From a virus (taxonomy: Duplodnaviria; Caudoviricetes): DNA of 31,151 nt. A program made the position numbers and the translations under genes. The notes below the pieces were generated by a model. It saw only the letters and a list, made by a program, of their open reading frames with translations. It was not told the DNA's origin and ran no database searches. The stretch's first letter is position 1; each line of letters opens with the position of its first letter. The stretch covers positions 1 to 31,151 of the IMG/VR virus record IMGVR_UViG_3300030376_001531. One strand, 5' to 3'. Shown in pieces: positions 2 through 26,647 of the stretch.

Positions 2-1399
2 GACACGACCATCGACTGGAAGAATACCGGTGACAACTCCTACGATGGGGAGAAACTCAAACTCCTCGTACATGATGAATCGGGGAAGTGGGAGAAGCCC
101 AACAACATCCTCAACAACTGGAGGGTCACGAAAACCACATTAAGGCTAGGTAGTAGAATTATTGGTAAATGTATGATGGGTTCAACTTCTAACGCTTTGG
201 ATAAAGGTGGTAGAAACTTTAAAAAATTATATGATGAATCAGATGTTACTAAACGAAACCGCAACGGACAGACTAGTTCGGGATTATATAGTTTGTTCAT
301 ACCTATGGAATGGAACTACGAAGGATACATTGATTCTTATGGCATACCTGTCTTCGACACTCCCGACACAGAAGTATTTGGACCACAAGGCGAGTCTATC
401 AACCTTGGAGTTATTGAGTACTGGGAAAATGAAGTTGAAGGATTAAAAGATAATCAGGATGCTCTAAATGAATTTTATAGACAGTTTCCAAGAACTACTA
501 AACACGCTTTTAGAGATGAATCTAAATCATCTTTATTTAATCTAACTAAGATATATCAACAAATAGATTACAACGAAGGCGCTAATAATAAAAAACTAGT
601 TACTCAAGGTAATTTTTTATGGCAAAATGGAATTAAAGATAGCAGGGTAATATTTGCACCTAATCAACAAGGAAGATTTTACATATCTTGGATACCTGAG
701 CCAAACTTACAAAATAGATATATAGAAAAAAACGGAATAAAACATCCTGGTAATGAACATATAGGTGCTTTTGGTTGTGATCCATATGATATATCAGGTA
801 CAGTAGACAAGCGAGGTTCTAACGGTTCTTTACACGGATTAACAAAATTCAGTATGGAAAACGCGCCTGCTGATCAATTTTTTCTAGAATATATAGCTAG
901 ACCACAAACAGCTGAAATATTTTTTGAAGACGTGTTAATGGCTTGTATATTTTATGGCATGCCTATATTGGCTGAAAACAATAAACCAAGACTTTTATAT
1001 CATTTTAAACGAAGAGGATATAGAGGTTTTGCTATGAATAGACCTGATAAGATATGGAATAAATTATCAGTAACAGAAAAAGAAATAGGTGGCATACCCA
1101 ACTCTAGTGAAGATATAAAACAAGCTCATGCAGCTGCAATTGAATCTTATATAGAAACCGCTGTAGGTTTTAACGGTGATAGTTATGGAAATATATATTT
1201 TCAAAGAACACTAGAAGACTGGGCTGCTTTTGATATAAACAATAGAACAACTCACGATGCTTCTATTAGTTCTGGTTTAGCTTTAATGGCTTGTAACAAA
1301 AATAGATACGCACCTGTTAGTAGAAGAAAACGTGAACCAGTAGATTTAGGAATTAAAAAATATGATAATCGAGGTTCGTTATCAAAAATAATTAAGTAA
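2..1399 (+). CDS. terL: Terminase large subunit, 5'-truncated by the window edge (ATPase Walker B region plus RNase H-like nuclease domain)
   Basis: Frame is open from position 2 (DTTIDWKNTGDNSYDGEKLKLLVHDESGKW...), so the track's ATG at 173 is internal. Walker B-like LLVHDE, coupling-motif-like GSTSN, nuclease acidic motifs FGCDPYD, LAENNK and THDASISSGLAL. Directly upstream of the portal. Confidence 0.92.
   Translation, partial: DTTIDWKNTGDNSYDGEKLKLLVHDESGKWEKPNNILNNWRVTKTTLRLGSRIIGKCMMGSTSNALDKGGRNFKKLYDESDVTKRNRNGQTSSGLYSLFIPMEWNYEGYIDSYGIPVFDTPDTEVFGPQGESINLGVIEYWENEVEGLKDNQDALNEFYRQFPRTTKHAFRDESKSSLFNLTKIYQQIDYNEGANNKKLVTQGNFLWQNGIKDSRVIFAPNQQGRFYISWIPEPNLQNRYIEKNGIKHPGNEHIGAFGCDPYDISGTVDKRGSNGSLHGLTKFSMENAPADQFFLEYIARPQTAEIFFEDVLMACIFYGMPILAENNKPRLLYHFKRRGYRGFAMNRPDKIWNKLSVTEKEIGGIPNSSEDIKQAHAAAIESYIETAVGFNGDSYGNIYFQRTLEDWAAFDINNRTTHDASISSGLALMACNKNRYAPVSRRKREPVDLGIKKYDNRGSLSKIIK
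3..143 (+). CDS. Candidate overprinted ORF (3' end only) in the +1 frame of terL; Ser/Thr/Pro/Gly/Arg-rich
   Basis: Frame 3 is open from the window start to TAA 141-143 (TRPSTGRIPVTTPTMGRNSNSSYMMNRGSGRSPTTSSTTGGSRKPH*). Bases 1-140 are 50% GC by hand count (70/140), and the skew ends at about this stop. Confidence 0.4.
   Translation, partial: TRPSTGRIPVTTPTMGRNSNSSYMMNRGSGRSPTTSSTTGGSRKPH
231..446 (+). CDS. Candidate overprinted 71-aa ORF in the +1 frame of terL
   Basis: Part of track ORF 207..446. ATG at 231 follows ctttaaaaaattat, which resembles real start contexts in this window. Overlapped terL codons are unusually C/G-ending (cgc, tcg, gtc, ccc, ggc, atc). Confidence 0.35.
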   Translation: MMNQMLLNETATDRLVRDYIVCSYLWNGTTKDTLILMAYLSSTLPTQKYLDHKASLSTLELLSTGKMKLKD

Positions 1400-3772
1400 A
1401 TGAATATATACGCAAATCCAAATAGTGCTTTTCCTAGCCAGACAGTCTCTGATGCTGAAAAATCTTCAGAAGAATATGGAAGACAAGTCGCACAAGCTAT
1501 AGAAGGTGAGTGGTGGCAACAAGGTGGTAATGGTACAAGATTTGCTACTTCATATAATAGATTTCATACTTTAAGGCTATATGCAAGAGGTGAACAATCT
1601 GTTCAAAAATATAAAGATGAATTAGCTATTAACGGTGATTTGTCGTATTTAAATTTAGACTGGAAACCAGTACCGGTTATATCTAAGTTTGTAGATATAG
1701 TTTCAAATGGTATGAATAATAAGCTTTATGAAATAAAAGCTTATGCTCAAGATCCTCAATCATTAAAAAAGAGAACAGCTTATGCTGATGCTATTTTAAC
1801 TGATATGCTGGCTAAACCTTTTTTACAAAACCTTCAAGGTACGTTAGGTGTAGATAAGTTTCAAACAGATAAAAATAAATTACCTGAAACTGAAGAAGAA
1901 CTAGATATTCATATGCAGCTTAGTTATAAGCAAAGTATAGAAATAGCTGAAGAAGAAGTTATAAATAACACACTTGAAAGAAATAGATTTGAAAATATAA
2001 AGAAAAGATTTAATCATGATCTTGTAACTTTAGGTATTGGAGCTTGTAAAACATCTTGGAATATGTCTAACGGTGTTAATTTAAAATATGTAGATCCAGC
2101 TAATTTAATATATTCTTATTCAGAAGATCCTCATTTTGAAGATATATATTATGTTGGTGAAGTAAAACAATTAACTGTACCTGAAATAGCTAAACAATTT
2201 CCTAATTTAACTCAAGAACAATTAAAGAAAATAGAACAAACTAGAGGTTATAGTAAAGATAGAGGTAACATATATGGTTATAATTCTTATGATCCTAACA
2301 CTGTTTCTGTATTGTTTTTTGAATACAAAACATATAATGAACAGGTATTTAAAATAAAACAAACTGATACTGGTTTAGAAAAAGCTTTAGAAAAAACAGA
2401 TTTATTTAACCCTCCACCTAGTGATAACTTTGAAAGAGTTTCTAGAAAAATAGAAGTACTATATGAAGGTGTAAAAATAGTAGGTAATAATGAGCTTATA
2501 AAATGGGAATTATCTCAAAATATGACTAGACCTTTTGCTGATAATGCTAAGGTTGAGATGAGCTATACGCTGTGTGCTCCTCGTATGTATAAAGGTAGAA
2601 TTGAATCTATAGTTAGTAAAATTACAGGTTTTGCTGATATGATTCAAATAACTCATTTAAAACTACAACAAGTTATTGCTCGTACAGTTCCAGATGGTGT
2701 GTTTTTAGATATGGATGGTTTGGCTGAAGTTGATCTAGGTAATGGTACTAATTATAATCCAGCTGAAGCTTTAAACATGTATTTTCAAACTGGTAGTATT
2801 GTTGGTAGATCAATGACACAAGAAGGTGATATGAATCCAGGTAAAGTACCTATTCAAGAATTACAAACATCAAGCGGTCAAGGTAAGATACAAAGTTTAA
2901 TAGCTACATATCAATATTATTTACAATTAATAAGAGATTGTACTGGATTAAATGAAGCTAGAGATGGTAGTATGCCTGAAAAAGATACATTAGTTGGTTT
3001 ACAAAAAATGGCTGTTAATGCTTCTAACACAGCTACTAGACATTTAATGCAAGCTAGTTTATGGTTAACGGTTAGAACTTGTGAAAATATATCTTTAAAA
3101 GTAGCCGACTCGTTAAAAAATCCTTTATTAGTTAACTCAATAAAAAGTTCTATATCAACATATAATACCGCTACACTAGCAGAAATAAAAAACTTACCAT
3201 TACATGATTTCGGTATTTATTTAGAGTTAGAGCCAGAAGAAGAAGAAAAAGCTAGATTAGAGCAAAATATACAAATGGCTATACAGCAAGGTGGTATAGA
3301 CTTAGAAGATGCTATTGACATTAGAAGAATTAGAAACTTGAAGCTTGCTAATGATGTTTTAAAACAAAAACGTAAAGCAAAACAAAAAAGAGAGCAAGAA
3401 ATGCAAATGCAAATGGCTCAACAACAAGAGCAAGCAAAAGCAGCATCAGCTCAAGCTATAGCTGAAGCAGAAATGCAAAAACAACAAGCTCTTACTGCTT
3501 CTAATGTACAGTATGAACAAGCTAAGAATCAAATGGCTATTCAAAAAATAGAATATCAAGCTAAGCTTGAACAACAAAAAATGCAACAACAACATATGTT
3601 TGACATGGAGTTAAAGAAAATGGAAGTTGATGCTATGAAAGAAAAAGAATCTTTTATCGAAGATCGTAAAGATAAAAGGACTCGGATGGAGGGTACTCAA
3701 CAAAGTGAGATGATAGATCAAAGAAACAATGATCTTATGCCTATAAATTTTGAGCAAAAACAAAGTATGTAA
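1400..3772 (+). CDS. Portal protein (crAss-like type, long Gln-rich C-terminal coiled coil)
   Basis: 790 aa, abuts the terL stop. Position between terminase and scaffold/capsid, and a helical Q/E/K-rich C-terminal barrel-like region typical of podovirus portals. Confidence 0.88.
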   Translation: MNIYANPNSAFPSQTVSDAEKSSEEYGRQVAQAIEGEWWQQGGNGTRFATSYNRFHTLRLYARGEQSVQKYKDELAINGDLSYLNLDWKPVPVISKFVDIVSNGMNNKLYEIKAYAQDPQSLKKRTAYADAILTDMLAKPFLQNLQGTLGVDKFQTDKNKLPETEEELDIHMQLSYKQSIEIAEEEVINNTLERNRFENIKKRFNHDLVTLGIGACKTSWNMSNGVNLKYVDPANLIYSYSEDPHFEDIYYVGEVKQLTVPEIAKQFPNLTQEQLKKIEQTRGYSKDRGNIYGYNSYDPNTVSVLFFEYKTYNEQVFKIKQTDTGLEKALEKTDLFNPPPSDNFERVSRKIEVLYEGVKIVGNNELIKWELSQNMTRPFADNAKVEMSYTLCAPRMYKGRIESIVSKITGFADMIQITHLKLQQVIARTVPDGVFLDMDGLAEVDLGNGTNYNPAEALNMYFQTGSIVGRSMTQEGDMNPGKVPIQELQTSSGQGKIQSLIATYQYYLQLIRDCTGLNEARDGSMPEKDTLVGLQKMAVNASNTATRHLMQASLWLTVRTCENISLKVADSLKNPLLVNSIKSSISTYNTATLAEIKNLPLHDFGIYLELEPEEEEKARLEQNIQMAIQQGGIDLEDAIDIRRIRNLKLANDVLKQKRKAKQKREQEMQMQMAQQQEQAKAASAQAIAEAEMQKQQALTASNVQYEQAKNQMAIQKIEYQAKLEQQKMQQQHMFDMELKKMEVDAMKEKESFIEDRKDKRTRMEGTQQSEMIDQRNNDLMPINFEQKQSM

Positions 3773-3803: not shown

Positions 3804-5003
3804 ATGTCAGAAAAAGAAACAAAAAAGCCTGAGGTGACTAAAGAGGTCAAATCAGAAGGCGGTGATATGAAAATAAAATCTAAGCCTAAAAAGTTTACTG
3901 CAAAAGATCAACCTGTAAAAGTTGATTTAAGAAAAGATCCTAATGTAAAAATTGAGGAACCAGTAAAAGTTGAAATTAAAAAAGAAGATAATGCCATTCA
4001 AATCGGAGAAACAAAGGAGGTACCTGTGGGCGACAAACCCGAAGCTAGCAAAAAAGTGGACGGAAAAATATCAGAGTCCGAATCGCCTATTATCGAACTT
4101 AATAAAGAAGAACAAAAAGAAATAAAAAAAGTAGAGCAGAAAGTTGCTGAAGCTAAAAGAGACGAACAAGTATTAGGTAGACAGCTACCTGAAAACATTG
4201 AAAAGCTTGTTTCTTTTATGGAAGATACTGGTGGTACTGTTCAAGACTATGTAAGGTTAAATCATGATTATTCAAATGTTAATGATGAGTCTTTACTTAG
4301 AGAATACTATAAAAATACTAAGCCACATCTTACGCATGACGAAATTTCATTTGTAATGGAAGATCAATTTACGTTTGATGCGGACGTTGATGAAGAGCGA
4401 GACATCAAAAAAAAGAAACTTGCTAAAAAAGAGGCGGTTGCAGAAGCACGTGGTCATTTAGAAGACTTGAAGAAAAGGTATTATGAAGAAATAAAATTAA
4501 GACCTGGAGTAACTCAAGAACAACAAAAGGCTGTGGACTTTTTTAATCGCTACAACACAGAACAAGAAATAGCAACGCAACAACACAAAGACTTTGTTAA
4601 CAACACTAAAAGTTATTTCTCTAATGAATTCAAAGGTTTTGATTTCGAAGTTGGAGAAAAGAATTTTAGATATGGGGTTAAAAATGTTAATGATGTTGCA
4701 GAGAATCAATCTAATTTAAACAACTTCGTCGGGAAGTTCTTAGACACAGAAGGAAACGTTAAAGATACGAAAGGTTATCATAAGGCTATATATGCTGCAC
4801 AGAATATAGATAAAATCGTAAATCATTTTTACGAACAAGGGAAATCTGATGGAATTAAAACTGTAGTAGACAGCTCAAAGAATATTTCTAATGAAGCTCG
4901 TCAAACTCAAGGTGATATTTTTATCGGAGGTCTTAAAGTTAAAGCTATAGATGGTGTAGATAGTTCTAAATTGAGAATTAAAAAAAGTAAATTTAACAAT
5001 TAA
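3804..5003 (+). CDS. Putative capsid scaffolding/assembly protein
   Basis: 399 aa between portal and MCP. Low-complexity E/K-rich N-terminus and helical charged C-terminal half. Confidence 0.7.
   Translation: MSEKETKKPEVTKEVKSEGGDMKIKSKPKKFTAKDQPVKVDLRKDPNVKIEEPVKVEIKKEDNAIQIGETKEVPVGDKPEASKKVDGKISESESPIIELNKEEQKEIKKVEQKVAEAKRDEQVLGRQLPENIEKLVSFMEDTGGTVQDYVRLNHDYSNVNDESLLREYYKNTKPHLTHDEISFVMEDQFTFDADVDEERDIKKKKLAKKEAVAEARGHLEDLKKRYYEEIKLRPGVTQEQQKAVDFFNRYNTEQEIATQQHKDFVNNTKSYFSNEFKGFDFEVGEKNFRYGVKNVNDVAENQSNLNNFVGKFLDTEGNVKDTKGYHKAIYAAQNIDKIVNHFYEQGKSDGIKTVVDSSKNISNEARQTQGDIFIGGLKVKAIDGVDSSKLRIKKSKFNN
3991..4125 (+). CDS. Overprinted 44-aa basic protein nested in the +1 frame of the scaffold gene
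   Basis: ATG 3991 to TAA 4123-4125 gives MPFKSEKQRRYLWATNPKLAKKWTEKYQSPNRLLSNLIKKNKKK. A-rich upstream context (aaaaaagaagata ATG) and local GC rise. The MPFKSxKQRRY(L/M)W...AKKW pattern is one I recognise from small standalone phage proteins. It is below the ORF-track size cut-off. Confidence 0.75.
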   Translation: MPFKSEKQRRYLWATNPKLAKKWTEKYQSPNRLLSNLIKKNKKK

Positions 5004-5015
5004 AACTATTTAAAA

Positions 5016-6482
5016 ATGAGTGTATTAAGTCCTCAGTTCGGAAATTTAGTACCTACTCCCCAATTAGAAACATTAGCATCAAATTATTTGAATTTTGCTG
5101 ACGGGGGTGGAAACGATTTCGCGCAACAATATCTACCTGAAATTTATGAAGCCGAGGTAGAACGTTATGGAAACAGAACGATTGGAGGCTTCTTAAGAAT
5201 GGTGGGAGCAGAAATGCCAATGATGTCTGATCAAGTTGTTTGGTCAGAGCAAAACAGATTACATGTATCTTATGATAATGTAACTGCTGGAAATGGTGGT
5301 ACTGCAAACACTTTAACTATTCAAGGTATAGGCGCAAGCATCGTAAACGTTGTTTTCCCTAACCAAACTATTGTAATTATGGATCCTGCTGATCCTTCGT
5401 TTACTTGTAAAGCAATGGTATTAACTTCTGGTGCAACTGCAAATCCTGCAACTGGAGTTCTTACTGTACAACCTTATACAAGAACAAACGTTAACGCTGG
5501 AGCTGCTAACAGAACTGGATTAAAGATATTTGTCTACGGTTCTGAGTTTGCGAAAGGTGTTACTGGACCAGGAGCTTCTCAATCTATTGAGCCACAATTA
5601 TCAGTATTTAGTAACAAACCTATTATTATTAGAGATAGATACGCAGTATCTGGTTCTGATACAGCTCAAATTGGTTGGGTTGAGGTTGCTACTGAAGATG
5701 GTACTTCTGGTTACTTATGGTATTTGAAAGCTGAAGGTGAAACTAGATTAAGATTCGAAGATTACTTAGAGATGTCAATGATTGAAGGTGAATTAGCTGC
5801 TACAAACGCTATTGCTGCTACTATTGGAGCACAAGCTGGTGTTGCTGGAGCTACTGCTGGTCAAATCGGTACTGAAGGTTTATTTGCTGCTATTAACAAT
5901 GGTGGTAATGTACTTTCTGGTTACGCTGGATCACTTCAAGATTTCGACTCTGTACTAAGATTATTAGACAGTCAAGGAGCAATTGAAGAAAATATGTTAT
6001 TCTTAGACAGAAAAACTGAACTATTATTTGATAATATGTTAGCACAGCAAAATTCTTACGGAGCTGGTGGTACATCTTACGGTGTATTCGAAAACTCTGA
6101 AGACATGGCGCTTAACTTAGGTTTTTCTGGATTTAGAAGAGGTTCATATGACTTCTACAAAACTTCTTGGAAATACTTAAATGACGCTTCTTTAAGAGGT
6201 GGATCTTCAAACTTTGTTAACGGTGATAACATCGATGGTGTATTAGTACCTGCTGGAACTTCTACAGTATACGATCAATTACTAGGAACAAACATCAGAA
6301 GACCTTTCTTACATGTAAGATATAGAGCTTCTCAAGCTGATGATAGAAGAATGAAATCATGGTTAACAGGTTCTGTTGGCGGTGCTAGTACTTCTACTCT
6401 TGATGCTATGGAGGTTAACTTCTTATCAGAAAGATGTCTATGTACTCAAGCAAGAAATAATTTCGTATTATTTGTAGCTTAA
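5016..6482 (+). CDS. Major capsid protein (HK97 fold expected)
   Basis: 488 aa after the scaffold, with high-expression codon usage (aac, ttc, tac, gct, ggt) and followed by a strong hairpin. Size and position match crAss-like MCPs. Confidence 0.88.
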   Translation: MSVLSPQFGNLVPTPQLETLASNYLNFADGGGNDFAQQYLPEIYEAEVERYGNRTIGGFLRMVGAEMPMMSDQVVWSEQNRLHVSYDNVTAGNGGTANTLTIQGIGASIVNVVFPNQTIVIMDPADPSFTCKAMVLTSGATANPATGVLTVQPYTRTNVNAGAANRTGLKIFVYGSEFAKGVTGPGASQSIEPQLSVFSNKPIIIRDRYAVSGSDTAQIGWVEVATEDGTSGYLWYLKAEGETRLRFEDYLEMSMIEGELAATNAIAATIGAQAGVAGATAGQIGTEGLFAAINNGGNVLSGYAGSLQDFDSVLRLLDSQGAIEENMLFLDRKTELLFDNMLAQQNSYGAGGTSYGVFENSEDMALNLGFSGFRRGSYDFYKTSWKYLNDASLRGGSSNFVNGDNIDGVLVPAGTSTVYDQLLGTNIRRPFLHVRYRASQADDRRMKSWLTGSVGGASTSTLDAMEVNFLSERCLCTQARNNFVLFVA

Positions 6483-17638: not shown

Positions 17639-20600
17639 ATGGTAAATCCTAAAGATTACGCGTGGCGAGATAAAGCCGCTTGGAATGACATACCCGAATA
17701 TCATCGAGATCGTGTTAAAAACCAGTTCGAAAAAGATTGGGATATTACAAACCATGAAAATCATGATCTTGTAGGTTCTTATGTGCAAACCTGGCTAGCT
17801 AATAATGAAGATAAAAATATTGATAAAGCTGGTGATATTATAGATAAAGAAAAAAGCTTACAAACTGACGACGCTAACATGAAGCGTATTCACGAACAAT
17901 TAAAAAAAGCTAAGTTTTTAAAAGGTAAAGCTTTAGATTATGATACTTTTGTTCAACATGCTGTGAATAATCCTGAGTATCGTATGAAGATACATAGTGT
18001 GCTAAGACAAAACAACATGGAGTCTAATGACATTGACTTTAACACGTTTAATACAAAAGTGTTTGGTGATGAATCAAGTATTACAAAAGCACCAGGAAGT
18101 TCTGCTCTTGATGATATGACTTTAGAAGAGCAAGAAAAAATAGCTAAAGAGCTTGGTATGACTGTAGAAGAAATGCTTGCAGATGAAGGAGCTCAAAGAA
18201 TATTTACTAGAGCTCAACCTGATAATACTATGATAGAGGTAGAAGGCGTACCTTTTGATATAGCGGCTCAATTACAAGGTAATGAAAAAACACAAGGTAG
18301 CAATAATTATGAAAATCAATTAATAGCTCAGCAAGAAGCTTATAATGAAATATTTGCAGGAGGTGCAGACGCTATACCGCTTTTACCTGATGGTACTGTT
18401 GATTACAATGCTTTAAATGCAAAAATAAAAGAAATAAAAGGATTTACACCTAATATTCGTATTGCTAAACAAGATTCAGTTATAGAAGATTTTGATTTTG
18501 ATACTCAATTAAATTTAGATGCCAATAACATAATGGTTCCAGATTTAAGTGGCGAGCGTGATAGTATATCAGGAAGAAATAAAATTGGAGGCGAGTGGGA
18601 CACTAGTACAAATAGAGCTATAAAAGCTTTGCAACCTTTTGTTAAAGCTGGTTTTTCTTTTGAAGAAGGCGAAGATCCAGATGACATGAGTGGTCAAACC
18701 GAGTCTTTATTAATTACAGCTCCTAATGGAGAAAAATTAAATATACAGCCTACATCTAGTAATCAACAAACTATTTTAGATTTTTTAAAAAATAATAATC
18801 AATTAATGTCAGCGGCAGATCAAAGAGCTAATCAAAGAAAATTAATAGAATATTATGATGGAGAAATAGATTTAACTACTAAAGAATTAGCTAAAATATC
18901 TATAATAGATCCAGAAGTAAAAGATTATGTGATGAGGAGCATGCCTGAGGATAGTGAAATACTTAATAAAGATGATTTTATGGGTACTGTTAATCCACAG
19001 ACTCAAAAAAAATATACAGAAGATGAAGCTATAGATGCTGAATTTAATTCTTTTCAAGAAGCTTATAAGCAAACTTTTGATAAAGCAGTTCACAATGATC
19101 CCAGATATGAATTTGCTACGATGCAAGCAAGAGAAGCTACTGATAAGCTTTCTAAAGATTATATAGAAAAGTTAAGAGAAAAATATGCAGATGAAGATGG
19201 TTTAGTTAGTGAGGAAAACATGCCTTTGATGCAAGAAGAATTTGCAGACTGGTATAACAATACTACTCAAGAAAACTTAAAGAATAATAAAGTAGCTAAA
19301 AGATTATTCCAAGATTATGGTTTAGCATCAGCTGAATTATACGGAGATAGATTTAGATCGTTTGAAAAATATAATTATGACACGTGGTTAGATGAGAATG
19401 TTTATAGAGAAATAGATCAAGCATTAGATTCAGGTAGAGGTGGTCCGATTATAGAATTTATGGAAACAGTAATTCCTACTGGAGGTTGGTGGAATAGAGC
19501 TTGGCAAAAAGTTAGAAGCTCTTCTGCTAGTATACCTGCCGGTATAAGAACCGTATCTAATACTATAGAGATAGCATTGCAAAAAGAACTTGAAATGGAA
19601 GGTAGATCTGAAATATATAATTCTATAAAAGATGGTATAGAAAATGGAGATCTTACTGAAAACATGACTTTAGCGGAAGCTAGAGAGGTTAATGGAGAAA
19701 TAGACAGTTGGATGAATTGGAATTTACTACACGGTTGGAGTGAAGACGATTCATTAAAAGATTTTTATGCTAAAAGAAAAGAAAGATACGATAACACTGT
19801 AAGAGATCTTACTGAAGATTTAGGTGATTTATCACAACAAGAAAGATATGCTAGTTTTGCTGCTGACTACGCAGACATGGAGCTAGATGGATATGCTATT
19901 CCTGACTGGTTCGTAAACAGTTCAGCTGATATGATAAAACAAGCACCGCATATGGTGCCAAGTACGCTAGGCGGTATATTATTAGCCGCTGGTACCGCAA
20001 CAACCGCTGTGTCTGGAGGAACTCTTTCATTTGCAGGAATACCTGCTGCTACTTTAGGTAGTGGTTTGTTAGCAGTAGGATCTGGTGTTATGGCTTCTCA
20101 AGTTTACGCTGATGTTTATATGCAAGGTCTTAGAAGACAAATGGAAGGCGAATATGGTGAAGGAGGTTTTTCAACTGAAGATTACTTAGACGCTTTGTCG
20201 AAAGATGAATATGGTTCTCAGATGCCGGCTTTAACAGCTGCTGCATTAACAGGTGCTTCAGAATATTTATTTGGTAAATTAGGTGGTAACATAACAGGTA
20301 ATGTTGCTGGTAATATATTAAAAAGCACAGCTGGTAATAAAATACTAGGAGCTACATTTGCTAATTACGCTAGAGGTTTAGTTTCATATGGAGCTGCTAC
20401 AACCATAGACGGTGTTATTGAAGGAGCAACAGAAGGTTTTCAATCATACATGGCTCAAGTAGCTGAAAATGCTATGAACCTTTATAAAGGTGATATGGAA
20501 AATGAAGCTACTTCTAGTATATTTTATAAAAATATAGATGTAGATGAGATCATAGAAGAAGCTAAAATGGGTTTCAATATGGGTATATTCATGGGTGTTG

Positions 20601-23600
20601 GTGGTGTTGCATTAAGTAACAAGAGTAATAAAGGTGGTAGTTATGATAATTTAAACTATGAAGGTAGAGCTATGCAAATAGCTGAGAAATATGATATATC
20701 TGGGTTTAATAATGATGATGGAGGAATTGGTCCAGGAAAAAGTGGTCCAGGAGGAAGTGGTGCTGGTATTAGTACCGCTGCTAATAAAGCGTTTTTAGAT
20801 ATACAACAAGCTATTAAAACTAATAATAATTTAACGCCTGTACAAAAACGAAATAAAATACAAACAGTATCTGATATTAGAGAAGCTGCTATAAAAGTAC
20901 CTCCAACAGTAAGAGGTGCAGATAAAAAAGCGTTAATAGATTTATTAAGAGAAAAGAAAAGCACTACAAATCAAATTAAAAAAATTAATGATAAAACTAT
21001 AAGTGGTTCTCAAGGATTAGATGGTAGGTTATCAGAAATAAATACTGAAATATCTGATATTATAAAAAACAATATTAATAATAAACCTATTACTCGTAAT
21101 ACTCTTATACCTCCAAAAGTAATGGATGCTATATTTAACAATGTATCTAGATTTGCAGGTGTTCAAAACTTTGTAGATCCTAGAGATCGTGCTTTAAATA
21201 GAGATTTTAGTATAGCTGATGATGGCATTTCTCCAGCACAACAAGGACCTAAATTAAACGAAGGTGTACAAGATTTTACTCAAGATCAAAGAACAAGAAC
21301 TAATAGACCACAAACAGTAGAAGGCGAAATAATACAAGCCGAAGCTGCTGGTGCACCTGATGTTAGAAATATTGTTGCTGAAAACGATTCATATAGTAGA
21401 ACAGATAGGCTTATGAATGATGCTGATTTTGATTTAGATAATAGATTTGATCAAAGAAGAGTATTAAAAGCAGCGGCTCCTGTAATAGAAGCGGCTTTAA
21501 AAAGAGAATATAAACCTGGTAGTTTATTAACAAGAGATCAATTTAGAACAGCATTGGAAAATGAATACTTGTTAACATTAAGAGAATACAATGAAGATCA
21601 AGATGTAAATCTACAAGGACCAGGAAAACAAACTAGTAATTTATTTGCTCTTAGAGCTAAGAGAATAACTAGAGAAAATATAGGTAAAGGTGAACGCGCT
21701 AGTTTAGACAGAGAAGATGCAATGCAAGTTGCTGATACATCGCAGGAACAAGATTTAGATCAAGATCAAACAGTTGGTACAAGAGAAAAAGTTTATTCCT
21801 CTGAAACAGATCAAGTGCAAGACCAAGATGTATCTGAAACTAAAGCTAACATTGAAGACCAAGTTGCAAAAGATATATTACTAGCTGTTAATAAAGGTGA
21901 TAATCCTGCTACAATAGTTAGTGAAATTAAAAACAATGTTAAAAAATCTTATTTTAAAGAGTTAAGAAGAGATATAGGTACATTTGCTAGTAAAGCGTAT
22001 AAAGATTTTATAAATTCTTTAGATGAAGCATTTATCAAGTCTATACCAGCAGCTACTATAAAAAGAAGATTTGGCAAACTATTTGGAATTAAACAAATAG
22101 GTATTACACCTACTAAACAAATAAGTAAATCAGGTAAACCTAGTAATTTCAACAAACAAATATATAGTATACCTAAAATAACAAAACAAGGTCTACAAGA
22201 GTTTAAAGATTATTTTTTAGCTGGTGAAAAAAGACAACAGTCAATGTATCAGATTTTAGCAAATGATTTTGCTTTAGAATCTATAAATGAATTAATGGCT
22301 GATAAAGGTTTTATGCAGAGACTAGAAACAGCTTTAGGTGATAGTGGTATTACTGCTGTAGAATTTATGCAAACAGTTGAAAATTTATTAGATGCTAGAG
22401 TTAAAGAAGATACTTCATTAGATGTAATAGATGCTCCGGTTAAACAAGCAGCCGGCGCTAGTCCTACTCCTACTCCTGTTGATGGTAGAAGAGCTATTAA
22501 AGAAGCGGATAAAAAGAAAGCAAGAGAAAAATTAGCTAAAGAAAAGTTGCAAAAGAAAATAGATAAGGCTAAAAAGAAAGTTAATTTAAAAGATTCTGAT
22601 GCTTATTTTGAGTTTAGTAAAGATAAAGAAGGTACTTCACTGTCAAGTATGTTTGGTTTTAAAAAGATACCTGTTAAAACAGAAAAATACATAGGACAAA
22701 GAGGTAAGTCAAAAGGTAAACAAAAATCAAGAACAATTTATGATTTAGATGCTATATCTGAAGTAGCTTCAAAAGAAGATGCTTCTAATAAGTTAACATT
22801 TAGAGAGTTAAGGGAAGAAGGTATAAATGGATTTTTAGATACTATAAAAGATCCTGATAAAAGAAAAAAATATACTGAACTACTTAAATCTTCTATGACT
22901 GGAAGTAAGAGGTTAAATTTTAACACTGTTTCAGAATTTGATTCTTCAATTTCTGGAGCTGAAGGTACTACTTTAGAACAAAACAGAACTAGATATAAAA
23001 ATAAAAAAGGTACATTAGATAAAAATGCTACAGATATAGTTTATAGTGAACAAAATTTAGATGATGTTTTAGATTTATTTGATGATTTAGGTAGTTTTTT
23101 ACGTGAAGGGGATAATTTGAAATACCTACCAGTATTCGATAGTATGATTGATGACAGTGGTAACAATATGAATCACATGATAAGGATAGCTGCGCCTTAT
23201 GCTTTTTACCCTATTGACATAAATACGGGTAAACCTGATTTTACTTCTAAAATAGATGAAGAACATAGTTTGCCAGCTCAAAATTTAGCTAGATTATTAT
23301 TATATGCGGCTGCTACTGATCAAATGAATATTGTTAGACCTGTAGTTAAAGGTTCATATATACAAGGAGCTATGTTAGCAAGTGAGCATGCTGATCTAGC
23401 TAACAAAGGTTTAAAATCTAAAATGAATGAAGCTTTTAATCTTGTATTCACCGGATTAAGAGATGGTAATGTAGCAAAAGTTTATCAAGGGTTAGGTTCT
23501 TTAGTAAGATACACGGGTGAAAACGTTATAAATCCTAATCAATATGTATTAAATAAGTATAATAAAACTATAGCGGAATACTATGGTGTTCAAGTAGATA

Positions 23601-26600
23601 AAATTCTCAGAAAAGTTCCTAATATAATAGAAATTCAAAATAAAGCTATAACTAGATTACAACAAGGTGAAAACAAAGCTGAAGTATTAAAAGAGTTTAA
23701 CACTATGCTTCCAATTGCAGAAGCCGCTGCTGCTCAAAATTTAAAAATACAAGAGTATACGCAGGCTTTACTAGAAAAAAGATGTACATCACCATGTAGA
23801 GTTCCTAGAACATCTAAACAAGTTAAGAAAACATTATTAAATTCATTAGCGGCAAGAATAAAAGCTTTAAATCCTTTCAAAAAACCAAAAGGTTTAAGTG
23901 CTTTTGACATGGACGATACTTTAGCTTTAACAAAAGAAAAAGTAATATACACACTTGATGGTAAAACATCTGAGTTAACAGCAGGTGAATTCGCTGTACA
24001 GTACGAAGGATTATTAGAACAAGGCGCAGAGTTTGATTATAGTAATTTTGACAATGTAGATTTATCTACGTCAAAAGGTCCATTAGCTGGAACAGCTTTA
24101 AGACGTCAAGATAAATATGGGTCTAAAGATATTTTTATTGTTACAGCTAGACCAAATGCTTCTCAAAATGCTATTAAAGTTTGGACTGATAGTATAGGTT
24201 TAAATATACCTATTGAAAATATTATTACATTAGAAGATGGATCACCTCAAGCAAAAGCAGATTGGTTGTTAAGTAAAGCAGCTGAAGGATATAATGATTT
24301 TTATTTTGCAGATGATTCATTATTAAATGTACAAACTGTAAAAGATATACTTGGTCAAATAGATGTTAAATCAAGAGTTCAACAAGCTATAGATGATAAA
24401 GCAACTAGACTTGATCAAGAGATGAATGATTTAATTGAAGACGCTACAGGTATAGGAGCAGAACAATTAGTAAGCGAGGTAGAAGCTAGAGTTGAAGGTA
24501 AGAAAAGAGACAAGGGTTTCTTTAAAAGAGTATTAAGACAGTTTAAAATAACAGCATCAGCTGATGATTTCTTAGGTTTAGGATATTATATGTTTGGAAA
24601 AGGCGAGAAAGGTACTAGACAAAGAAAATGGTTTGTTGAAAATTTAATAGCTCCTTATGATAAAGCTGAACAAGCTTTAATATCTGCTAAAGCTACTGTG
24701 GCGAATGATTTTGCAGCTCTTAAAAAAGCTTTCCCTAGTTTAAGAAGTAAAGGTGTAAAAGGATTTTTTACTAATCCTTTGAATCAAGAAGTTGGATATA
24801 AATCGTTTACTAAGTCACAAGCAGCAAGAGTTTATTTATGGAATAAACAAGGTATGGATATTCCTGGTATGTCTCAAGCAGATATAGATGGTTTAGTTAA
24901 TGCTGTTAATACTGATTTTGAATTACAACAATTTGCAGATAAAATACAGTTAATACAAAAAGAAGCACAATATCCTGGTCCTAAAAATAATTGGTTGGCT
25001 GGTGATATTAAATCTGATATATTAGGTAGTTTAGATACAACCTTTAGAGCTGAATTATTATCTGAATGGAATTCAAATATAAATATTGTATTCTCTGAAA
25101 AAAATCTTAACAAGTTAGAAAAAGCATTTGGTTCTAAATATGTAGAAGCTGTAAAAGATTCTATAACACGTATGAGATCAGGAACTAATAGACCTACTTA
25201 TACAGGAAGTGGATCTCGTCAAGTTAATGAAATGATGGACTGGATAAACAGTTCTGTCGGTGTAGCGATGTTTTTAAATGTTAGATCTGGATCATTACAG
25301 ATGCTATCTAATGTAAACTTTTTAAATTGGGGTGATAATAATATATATGCAGCTGCTAAAGCGTTTGTTAGTAAAGATTATGTTCCTACAGTTATGAAGT
25401 TGATGAACTCTGATTATCTTGTAAATAGACGTGATGGTTTAAAGATTAATGTAAATGAAGCTGAACTTGCTGCGGCCGCTAATAAAGGTGGTTTTAAAGG
25501 AATGCTTAACTATTTACTTGATAAAGGTTTTATAATTACAAGAATCATGGATAGTTTAGCTATTGCAACAGGTGGTGCTCCTTTTTACATTAATAGAGTA
25601 AAATCATTGTTGAAAAGAGTTAATCCAGAAACTGGTAAACTTTATACACAGAAAGAAGCAGAAACAAAAGCATTTGATGATTTTTATTCTATAGCAGAAG
25701 AAACACAACAGTCAAGTAATCCTAGTAAAATATCTTCTCAACAAGCAAGTTTATTTGGACGTACGATATTATCTTATCAAAACGTTACAATGCAGTATAA
25801 TAGAAAGGCTAAGAAAATGTTATTAGACTTTATCAATAGAAGACGTAGACCAGGAATGACACAGCGTGAAAGTGATTTAAGTAATTTATCTGGTGTTGTT
25901 TATTATGTTGCTATACAAAATTTAATATTTAATTCTTTACAACAAGCTTTATTTGCTCTAGCATTTGATGAAGATGATGAAAGAGAAAAAGATAAAGTAG
26001 CTGATACTATAAACGGTATGATGGACTCATTATTATTTGGTCTTGGATTTGGTGGAGCTATAATATCTACGGTAAAAAATGTAATAAGAGAATTAAAATT
26101 CCAGCATGATAGAAAGAGTCCTAAATATGAAGAAGCTGTATTTAACTTGTTTGATATATCACCTGTAATAGATCAAAAGGTTCGTAATGTTAGAACAGCT
26201 TTGAGAACATTTAGTTGGAATATGAAAGAAATTAAAAATAGAGGTTGGAGCATAGAAAACCCAGCTTATCTAGCTGTTTCTCAATTAATATCTGCCTTTA
26301 CTAATATACCAATAGATAGAGCTCTTAGAAAATATAACAATATTAGTCAAGCTTTTGATGAAGAAACTAGAACATATGAAAAAATAGCTTTACTATTAGG
26401 TTGGAATGGTTGGAACTTTGGTTTACCATATTGGGGTAGAGAAAGTACAATACAGCAAGAATTAAAAGATGAAGAAACTTTAAAAAAGAAATTTAAAGCT
26501 GATGTTAGAAACGCAAAAGCAAATGGCTTTACAAAGAGAGTGCCTTTTACAGGGCCAAACTCAGGTAAACCAAAAGGTGAACTTGGAGTTGATTATGTAC

Positions 26601-26647
26601 AGATAGAGAGATATGACGGATTGATACAATACTATAAAAAACCATAA
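17639..26647 (+). CDS. Giant multidomain internal virion/ejection protein with membrane-type segments and a HAD-family phosphatase domain
   Basis: 3002-aa uninterrupted ORF. Gly/Ala-rich hydrophobic stretches at about 19950-20610 and 25870-26080. HAD motifs FDMDDTL, IVTAR, K and FADDS at about 23891-24390. Confidence 0.72.
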   Translation: MVNPKDYAWRDKAAWNDIPEYHRDRVKNQFEKDWDITNHENHDLVGSYVQTWLANNEDKNIDKAGDIIDKEKSLQTDDANMKRIHEQLKKAKFLKGKALDYDTFVQHAVNNPEYRMKIHSVLRQNNMESNDIDFNTFNTKVFGDESSITKAPGSSALDDMTLEEQEKIAKELGMTVEEMLADEGAQRIFTRAQPDNTMIEVEGVPFDIAAQLQGNEKTQGSNNYENQLIAQQEAYNEIFAGGADAIPLLPDGTVDYNALNAKIKEIKGFTPNIRIAKQDSVIEDFDFDTQLNLDANNIMVPDLSGERDSISGRNKIGGEWDTSTNRAIKALQPFVKAGFSFEEGEDPDDMSGQTESLLITAPNGEKLNIQPTSSNQQTILDFLKNNNQLMSAADQRANQRKLIEYYDGEIDLTTKELAKISIIDPEVKDYVMRSMPEDSEILNKDDFMGTVNPQTQKKYTEDEAIDAEFNSFQEAYKQTFDKAVHNDPRYEFATMQAREATDKLSKDYIEKLREKYADEDGLVSEENMPLMQEEFADWYNNTTQENLKNNKVAKRLFQDYGLASAELYGDRFRSFEKYNYDTWLDENVYREIDQALDSGRGGPIIEFMETVIPTGGWWNRAWQKVRSSSASIPAGIRTVSNTIEIALQKELEMEGRSEIYNSIKDGIENGDLTENMTLAEAREVNGEIDSWMNWNLLHGWSEDDSLKDFYAKRKERYDNTVRDLTEDLGDLSQQERYASFAADYADMELDGYAIPDWFVNSSADMIKQAPHMVPSTLGGILLAAGTATTAVSGGTLSFAGIPAATLGSGLLAVGSGVMASQVYADVYMQGLRRQMEGEYGEGGFSTEDYLDALSKDEYGSQMPALTAAALTGASEYLFGKLGGNITGNVAGNILKSTAGNKILGATFANYARGLVSYGAATTIDGVIEGATEGFQSYMAQVAENAMNLYKGDMENEATSSIFYKNIDVDEIIEEAKMGFNMGIFMGVGGVALSNKSNKGGSYDNLNYEGRAMQIAEKYDISGFNNDDGGIGPGKSGPGGSGAGISTAANKAFLDIQQAIKTNNNLTPVQKRNKIQTVSDIREAAIKVPPTVRGADKKALIDLLREKKSTTNQIKKINDKTISGSQGLDGRLSEINTEISDIIKNNINNKPITRNTLIPPKVMDAIFNNVSRFAGVQNFVDPRDRALNRDFSIADDGISPAQQGPKLNEGVQDFTQDQRTRTNRPQTVEGEIIQAEAAGAPDVRNIVAENDSYSRTDRLMNDADFDLDNRFDQRRVLKAAAPVIEAALKREYKPGSLLTRDQFRTALENEYLLTLREYNEDQDVNLQGPGKQTSNLFALRAKRITRENIGKGERASLDREDAMQVADTSQEQDLDQDQTVGTREKVYSSETDQVQDQDVSETKANIEDQVAKDILLAVNKGDNPATIVSEIKNNVKKSYFKELRRDIGTFASKAYKDFINSLDEAFIKSIPAATIKRRFGKLFGIKQIGITPTKQISKSGKPSNFNKQIYSIPKITKQGLQEFKDYFLAGEKRQQSMYQILANDFALESINELMADKGFMQRLETALGDSGITAVEFMQTVENLLDARVKEDTSLDVIDAPVKQAAGASPTPTPVDGRRAIKEADKKKAREKLAKEKLQKKIDKAKKKVNLKDSDAYFEFSKDKEGTSLSSMFGFKKIPVKTEKYIGQRGKSKGKQKSRTIYDLDAISEVASKEDASNKLTFRELREEGINGFLDTIKDPDKRKKYTELLKSSMTGSKRLNFNTVSEFDSSISGAEGTTLEQNRTRYKNKKGTLDKNATDIVYSEQNLDDVLDLFDDLGSFLREGDNLKYLPVFDSMIDDSGNNMNHMIRIAAPYAFYPIDINTGKPDFTSKIDEEHSLPAQNLARLLLYAAATDQMNIVRPVVKGSYIQGAMLASEHADLANKGLKSKMNEAFNLVFTGLRDGNVAKVYQGLGSLVRYTGENVINPNQYVLNKYNKTIAEYYGVQVDKILRKVPNIIEIQNKAITRLQQGENKAEVLKEFNTMLPIAEAAAAQNLKIQEYTQALLEKRCTSPCRVPRTSKQVKKTLLNSLAARIKALNPFKKPKGLSAFDMDDTLALTKEKVIYTLDGKTSELTAGEFAVQYEGLLEQGAEFDYSNFDNVDLSTSKGPLAGTALRRQDKYGSKDIFIVTARPNASQNAIKVWTDSIGLNIPIENIITLEDGSPQAKADWLLSKAAEGYNDFYFADDSLLNVQTVKDILGQIDVKSRVQQAIDDKATRLDQEMNDLIEDATGIGAEQLVSEVEARVEGKKRDKGFFKRVLRQFKITASADDFLGLGYYMFGKGEKGTRQRKWFVENLIAPYDKAEQALISAKATVANDFAALKKAFPSLRSKGVKGFFTNPLNQEVGYKSFTKSQAARVYLWNKQGMDIPGMSQADIDGLVNAVNTDFELQQFADKIQLIQKEAQYPGPKNNWLAGDIKSDILGSLDTTFRAELLSEWNSNINIVFSEKNLNKLEKAFGSKYVEAVKDSITRMRSGTNRPTYTGSGSRQVNEMMDWINSSVGVAMFLNVRSGSLQMLSNVNFLNWGDNNIYAAAKAFVSKDYVPTVMKLMNSDYLVNRRDGLKINVNEAELAAAANKGGFKGMLNYLLDKGFIITRIMDSLAIATGGAPFYINRVKSLLKRVNPETGKLYTQKEAETKAFDDFYSIAEETQQSSNPSKISSQQASLFGRTILSYQNVTMQYNRKAKKMLLDFINRRRRPGMTQRESDLSNLSGVVYYVAIQNLIFNSLQQALFALAFDEDDEREKDKVADTINGMMDSLLFGLGFGGAIISTVKNVIRELKFQHDRKSPKYEEAVFNLFDISPVIDQKVRNVRTALRTFSWNMKEIKNRGWSIENPAYLAVSQLISAFTNIPIDRALRKYNNISQAFDEETRTYEKIALLLGWNGWNFGLPYWGRESTIQQELKDEETLKKKFKADVRNAKANGFTKRVPFTGPNSGKPKGELGVDYVQIERYDGLIQYYKKP

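Follow-up and report, generated by a model that had tools for sequence, protein, structure and literature searches.

Small genes that lie wholly inside larger ones are familiar from phages. In phiX174, gene E encodes a hydrophobic lysis protein and is nested in a shifted frame of the scaffolding gene D. Lambda Rz1 lies entirely inside Rz in the +1 frame, and spanin genes occur in embedded, overlapped and separated arrangements; according to a survey of these genes, in no spanin family were embedded members accompanied by overlapped or separated members (PMC6139136). Frames overprinted de novo are usually without homologues, and their evolution is more rapid than that of the ancestral frame (PMC8227390). 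IPI, IPII and IPIII, which are internal proteins of T4, are described as small, dispensable and variable, residing inside the head and carrying an N-terminal signal (PMC9026906).

We analyzed a window of 31,151 nucleotides, a 31 kb virus record whose DNA is found in marine metagenomes and in which the genes for the terminase, the portal, a 399-codon protein and the likely capsid protein follow each other. Wholly within the 399-codon ORF at 3804-5003, and offset by +1, lies a second ORF at 3991-4125 (+), which runs from ATG to TAA and encodes 44 amino acids, MPFKSEKQRRYLWATNPKLAKKWTEKYQSPNRLLSNLIKKNKKK, with a net charge of +12. The features of the region are:

2..1399, + strand: terminase large subunit gene, 5'-truncated (phrog_6681, E 2e-93)
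1400..3772, + strand: portal gene (phrog_6547, E 2e-142)
3804..5003, + strand: host gene, putative scaffold, 399 aa; the nested gene overlaps its codons 63-107
3971..3990, + strand: initiation region of the nested gene, A-rich, unstructured and without a Shine-Dalgarno motif (A at -3, -6, -12 and -13)
3991..4071, + strand: conserved core of the nested gene, residues 1-27 (M1, P2, Q8 and P17 invariant)
4072..4122, + strand: variable basic tail, from sequence comparison
5016..6482, + strand: likely major capsid gene, from its match (phrog_13704, E 3e-88) and its position

The arrangement resembles phiX174 E in D, in that a small gene is placed out of frame within a gene for a scaffolding protein (putative in the window), but E is a hydrophobic lysis protein, whereas the window peptide is basic, predicted to be soluble, and has many free-standing homologues. 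Rz1 is always found in its partner's gene, while the family described below is nested, free and fused, in unrelated hosts. We rejected an embedded o-spanin of the Rz1 type, since the peptide has no Cys, hydrophobic leader, signal peptide, lipobox or membrane segment, and the N-terminus of the host protein is hydrophilic. With de novo overprints, as characterized in PMC8227390, the locus shares a same-strand +1 overlap, asymmetric evolution and one disordered partner; it differs in that the nested frame is widely homologous and is the conserved partner. Gene nesting as such is known; the distinguishing mark here is what looks like repeated capture and relocation.

The 399-aa host protein had been called a scaffold in the original prediction. 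This name is kept as putative, on the position of the gene between the portal and capsid genes: no PHROG, Pfam or PDB match names the protein, and a fold search of the PDB was also empty. It is predicted to be helical and partly disordered, which together with its location fits a scaffolding protein. Its matches are uncharacterized phage proteins, such as those of Cellulophaga phi18:3 (E 4e-8) and phi14:2 (E 0.008), and a relative at the same gene position in cultured Flavobacterium Elemovirus phages, elemoF included, is annotated as 'structural protein'. The label of phrog_13704, matched by the likely capsid gene, is itself just 'virion structural protein'. In the model of the host protein, which is helical, residues 1-128 mostly have pLDDT <50, and we read this region as probably disordered.

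The original prediction held that the 44-codon ORF is a real gene with an A-rich start, that the host-frame peptide opposite it is a passenger, and that the host codons there switch to rare forms. The ORF, its frame, its start context and the quoted host-frame peptide are as described. The seven codons gcc, atc, gtg, ggc, ccc, tcc and tcg each have a relative use of 1-7% in this genome, and the host frame has a codon adaptation of 0.339 over codons 63-92, a value that none of 298 windows of 30 codons from 13 other genes falls to (minimum 0.394). Length alone says little, as the host gene has further +1 open stretches downstream of up to 93 codons. When host codons were shuffled synonymously, an ATG followed by 44 open codons arose in 8 of 5000 cases. 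Against a profile of 113 non-nested relatives, whose genomic context is known for five cultured phages only, the nested peptide scores 60.6 bits, a value matched by none of 5000 shuffles (best 23.0).

We used the best 80 of 600 relatives of the host gene, with 49-98% identity. The ATG and the open frame, whose conservation the original prediction had proposed to examine, are kept in 68 of these 80, as a +1 ORF of 37-55 aa starting with MP[F/L] at host codons 37-76. The selection test drew on 56 of the 69 carriers, namely those whose core is free of gaps (48 distinct), leaving out 13 with insertions, and compared 21 independent pairs picked on C-terminal DNA. Over the same bases, the nested frame has a pN/pS of 0.21 and the host frame one of 1.51, while the flanks of the host gene show 0.26 and 0.17; mean amino-acid identity is 58% and 45% in the nested and host frame, respectively. 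The ATG is invariant in all 48 nested cores. The nested frame is under purifying selection and the host frame is open yet unconstrained there, which bears out its description as a passenger. The same test rejects a second +1 ORF at 4594-4719 (+), which recurs in many relatives but is a shadow of the host frame (+1 pN/pS 1.5-1.6), and so the test discriminates. The host frame is open across the nested gene in all 69 carriers (mean P 0.0006 under synonymous peptide shuffling), whereas among free or fused copies just 1 of 21 and 4 of 33 have the corresponding frame open over 35 codons. Because such openness is rare both by chance and in these copies, we conclude that both frames are maintained, the host-frame stretch being a presumably disordered spacer that is kept open. 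These results confirm that 3991-4125 is a real conserved gene.

Two readings that deny the ORF an independent product have little left to stand on. We give almost no credence to a shadow frame of the scaffold sequence: Glu/Lys-rich, A-rich DNA does naturally give a basic +1 frame, and the host gene has its other +1 open stretches, but the per-frame test, which places selection on the +1 frame and not on the host frame, refutes this reading, the profile score is out of reach of every shuffle, and free-standing homologues exist. Scarcely more credible is that translation of the ORF depends entirely on a programmed frameshift that joins it to the scaffold at a heptamer (A_AAA_AAG, nested codons 21-23). 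The window does contain this heptamer, and three database proteins (P0003, P0014 and P0016) are hybrids of both frames; however, only 3 of 69 carriers have it at that position, the hybrids switch frame at differing places, as expected of indel errors, and both the invariant ATG and the conserved W/F23 beyond the heptamer count against it.

The start region is consistent with internal initiation. The 20 bases upstream have an A fraction of 0.64 at the nested starts, equal to that at capsid-gene starts, compared with 0.38 at 1055 other +1 ATGs. A occupies position -3 in 85%, -6 in 92% and -12 in 89% of the nested starts, no Shine-Dalgarno motif occurs in any of 53, and the folding energy of nested start regions is -1.4 versus -4.6 kcal/mol. 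A at these upstream positions has been reported for starts of Flavobacterium johnsoniae (PMC6847099). The nested start context thus appears to fit Flavobacteria and resembles the phage's own gene starts, and translation is predicted from it, although the A-rich start is partly imposed by Lys/Glu codons of the host frame. Contigs from RNA libraries span 3830-4159 and are uninformative on strand or translation. In one metagenome, contig depth over window positions 3992-4065 reaches 851, against 17-152 in the adjacent bins; this jump probably stems from DNA common to relatives and free-standing copies.

In the conserved core, F3, S5 and W23 are each present in at least 90% of sequences, and prediction gives a helix over residues 6-15, a Pro, and a helix over 17-27. 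The modelled helix-Pro-helix core is confident (pLDDT 79-92 over residues 1-30), while the basic tail is poorly defined; its 'RLL..K' part is probably shaped by a P-I-x-E motif of the host frame. The peptide matches no Pfam family at E<=0.1, and we therefore rejected DUF3008 (PF11450), which came from just a feature-level lead of 0.83. Searching the PDB by sequence returned only spurious repeat-summed matches, and fold searches with the peptide model gave a best Z of 3.6 in the PDB (none >=5) and uncharacterized proteins only in a viral library. A complex prediction with portal residues 1-680 scored 0.00, which is no answer and counts neither way.

The nested gene is missing from 12 of the 80 relatives. 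A tree of 81 host proteins, built by a quick method, implies at least seven changes between presence and absence; being unrooted, it cannot alone tell gain from loss. This pattern indicates that the gene is not essential. Presence differs even between sisters with 96.7% (L018/L029) and 97.9% (L064/L063) identity in C-terminal DNA. A replacement copy was sought in five of the 12 gene-less relatives and found in none, the records being just 19-62% complete. Apparent relics lie at the same position in gene-less L029, L033, L069, L074 and L075, either as a broken KSPARLL stretch or as a degenerate frame led by an ATG.

The peptide matches phrog_1375, a family of unknown function, over residues 3-27 (E 3.3e-5), and 18 of the 40 aligned members of phrog_1375 match the peptide at E<=0.01. 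By sequence similarity, it belongs to a widespread, uncharacterized phrog_1375-like family of small basic MPFKS proteins, whose motif we estimate to occur in about 7500 stored viral stretches. The family has four architectures: nested in the scaffold gene, free-standing, fused N-terminally to other proteins, and nested in giant genes. The standalone homologues that the original prediction expected are found in the cultured phages C75C1, 023Pt_psg01, S-CBS2, FlowerPower and P-RSP2 (by tblastn for FlowerPower and 023Pt_psg01), and the core is near-identical among phages of very distant hosts. The phrog_1375 members of the Streptomyces phage FlowerPower (gp48) and of 023Pt_psg01 (URG13095.1) have the same MPFKS...W core as the window peptide; they are free-standing genes annotated as hypothetical, whereas the window gene is nested and was missed by annotation. 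The expectation that standard annotation would miss the gene extends to its relatives, as the free-standing copy is annotated in two of the five cultured phages and skipped in the other three, and nested copies are skipped although the gene is common.

In the fused form, 116 of the best 120 of 381 matches among longer proteins have the module at residues 1-3, ahead of unrelated passengers; one of the 116 is a frame hybrid, and the other four proteins comprise three with short N-terminal extensions and one further frame hybrid. In the giant-nested form, the gene occupies the +1 frame of genes for proteins of 1100-2770 aa, and pN/pS is 0.29 in the nested frame versus 1.87 in the host frame, using codons outside the search pattern and pairs picked on core similarity. 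An unranked pattern scan assigned the first 80 of 120 loci to scaffold-nested (21), giant-nested (26) or neither (33), with another open frame in 10 of the 33 taken as chance. For the window subtype, the first 80 of 120 loci comprised 48 scaffold-nested, 3 nested but unassigned, 26 free (some of them cut by contig ends) and 3 fused copies. With the overlap masked, the giant host proteins form three BLAST groups, and no Pfam family above the cut-off was found in the 6 of 26 that were scanned. A Shine-Dalgarno motif precedes 5 of 24 giant-nested copies, which are exactly the five outside the main BLAST group, and whose records (three of five complete) lack the capsid gene of this family; the start signal therefore follows lineage. 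Wherever the host of a nested copy was identified, it is the scaffold-like gene or one of the giant genes, the latter carrying a structural annotation in elemoF. One family thus occurs free, fused and nested in at least two unrelated host genes, and probably in three or four. The window itself has a gene for a 3002-aa protein at 17639-26647 (+) with a weak link to the giant hosts (26% over about 256 aa with L205), and it holds no nested copy.

A divergent branch of the family lies in Acidobacteria chromosomes and one Verrucomicrobia genome, with no evident phage genes at the ten loci inspected (around position 4001 of L564, L573, L576, L583, L584, L591, L592, L594, L598 and L599). DNA-repair genes adjoin the branch in four of these: Ku, uracil-DNA glycosylase (UDG) and DUF72 at L576, SRAP and a DNA ligase at L599, and an AP endonuclease-like gene at L573 and L583.

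Each of the 15 records with nested or free copies, 10 of which are at least 90% complete, holds a single copy; genomes with fused forms were left out of this count. Since this is true of all 10 near-complete genomes, the gene apparently relocates from one host gene to another. In five genomes with a giant-nested copy, a scaffold homologue is present that lacks the nested gene, and four free copies immediately follow a homologous giant gene. In the cultured Flavobacterium phage elemoF, the scaffold gene is devoid of a copy, but gp18 contains an unannotated one of 42 aa at codon ~1221 (NC_055853.1, 52379-52507; L600:7001-7129), which agrees at 33 of 42 residues with the copy nested in the scaffold gene of L079. 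This gp18-nested match, which is weak (E 3), came up in each of the 68 elemo records. The two frames carry opposite charges: +12 for the window peptide, with a mean of +14 for giant-nested ones, and -4 (mean -9) when the DNA is read one base back.

Capture into disordered linkers, which tolerate the acidic frame, is the likely route. On this route, disordered acidic linkers would have taken up a free-standing gene in-frame on more than one occasion; shifted back by one base, its Lys/Arg codons give Glu, Asp and Gly, which linkers of this kind would tolerate. As the peptide family is wider than the host gene and occurs in unrelated hosts, it is most likely the old gene that was captured and the host-frame spacer that is derived. 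Of the claim that this is a real overprinted gene, the real nested gene stands, whereas a newly born frame does not, and we rejected de novo overprinting because free-standing, fused and otherwise nested homologues exist outside the host gene. The usual explanation of a viral overlap is a new frame that arose within an established gene; at this locus it is the inner gene that is old and conserved. More tentatively, and at somewhat less than even odds, we propose an ancient micro-gene that moves intact between free positions and the +1 frames of acidic linkers in several unrelated virion genes, present once per genome and given a start signal that suits each host (A-rich or Shine-Dalgarno). It would encode a head peptide independent of lineage, whose free N-terminal Pro is the working end that loads cargo or guards injected DNA. 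If so, overlap would arise here through repeated capture and relocation rather than de novo birth. The proposal concerns very abundant marine phages, and the unannotated elemoF copy provides a cultured system for direct tests of translation and function. A literature search, with most subscription journals and supplements outside its reach, returned no description of the family or of its nesting.

For the function, we favor a conserved nested gene for a dispensable, basic, DNA-binding internal head peptide (probability about 0.55). A nucleic-acid-binding or internal head role, as originally predicted, is suggested by gene neighborhood and charge; the head-gene neighborhood, the motifs that follow the fused modules and the analogy with T4 internal proteins favor the internal head peptide. 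The T4 proteins serve as a working model for the function; we found no sequence or fold similarity between IPI/II/III and the nested peptide, and no leader like the T4 capsid-targeting sequence precedes it. Among 28 distinct free-standing loci, 17 have a terminase, portal, scaffold, capsid or head protease gene among the four nearest ORFs of at least 150 aa, a figure that stands without a genome-wide baseline. Two others lie beside tail or structural genes, four directly after a giant gene, and five have replication or glycosyltransferase neighbors or no informative neighbor. Candidate head-protease motifs (xGG, KxA, [ILV]xE), chosen post hoc after inspection of the data, follow the module in 64 of 80 fused proteins against a background of 46%, and could release the same short peptide.

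According to the internal-head-peptide reading, ribosomes would start internally at the A-rich AUG on the portal-scaffold-capsid message. Removal of Met leaves Pro at the N-terminus, and the Met would be cleaved off here to expose it. Residues 2-27 would then adopt a helix-Pro-helix fold, and DNA binding would fall to the Lys/Arg tail. The peptide would enter the prohead with scaffold and capsid proteins, neutralize the packaged DNA and maybe be ejected alongside it, being useful yet dispensable. Simple neutralization of DNA fails to account for the strict N-terminal position, and the divergent Acidobacteria chromosomal branch counts against this reading.

Other functions would explain parts of these data. 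The module could be a head-loading tag, similar to the T4 capsid-targeting sequence, that docks on a prohead protein and carries a basic tail or long passenger inside. In its favor are the place of the module at the N-terminus of unrelated cargos (116 of the best 120 longer proteins), the candidate protease motifs behind the module, and the behavior of the T4 sequence itself (PMC9026906). We nevertheless consider a tag unlikely, since the module has 27 residues with a predicted fold rather than a 10-residue leader, spans phages with very different head proteins and in most copies bears only a short basic tail, and since each complete genome checked has one copy where a tag should recur on several cargos. 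A shade less likely is an effector, packaged or made late, that acts on a host target, or a protector of phage DNA, through IPI*-like counter-defence or by capping DNA ends or abasic sites via the N-terminal Pro. This would fit the several allele classes that are dispersed across the host-gene tree, the recent losses that set near-identical sisters apart, the strict N-terminus and the repair genes at four of the ten chromosomal loci, but the other six loci lack repair genes, ordinary recombination could mix alleles, and a core so similar in phages of very distant hosts is unlike typical arms-race proteins. Capping of abasic sites or DNA ends through an N-terminal Pro is moreover an analogy, and we counted this against the effector. 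A non-virion helper of assembly or packaging that acts on portal or terminase is more doubtful again: the portal gene is often the immediate neighbor, on one side or the other, of a free-standing copy (as in L184, L223, L243, L250, L179, L210 and L219), yet giant-nested copies are far from it, the fused forms resemble head cargo, and the portals concerned are very divergent.

The free-standing copies of L119, L138, L148, L156, L159 and L161 lie in the portal-capsid interval among other very basic small ORFs, many of which have KKGG-type repeats. The +1 frame of the terminase gene contains a candidate second nested gene of about 70 aa at window positions 231-446 (+). With a +1 pN/pS of about 1, it may in part shadow a conserved motif of the terminase. 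Over 242-362 this frame is open in 35 of 35 sequences, a Met with A-rich context recurs, and synonymous change in the host frame is halved (pS 0.22, against 0.44-0.61 in most other windows of the gene).
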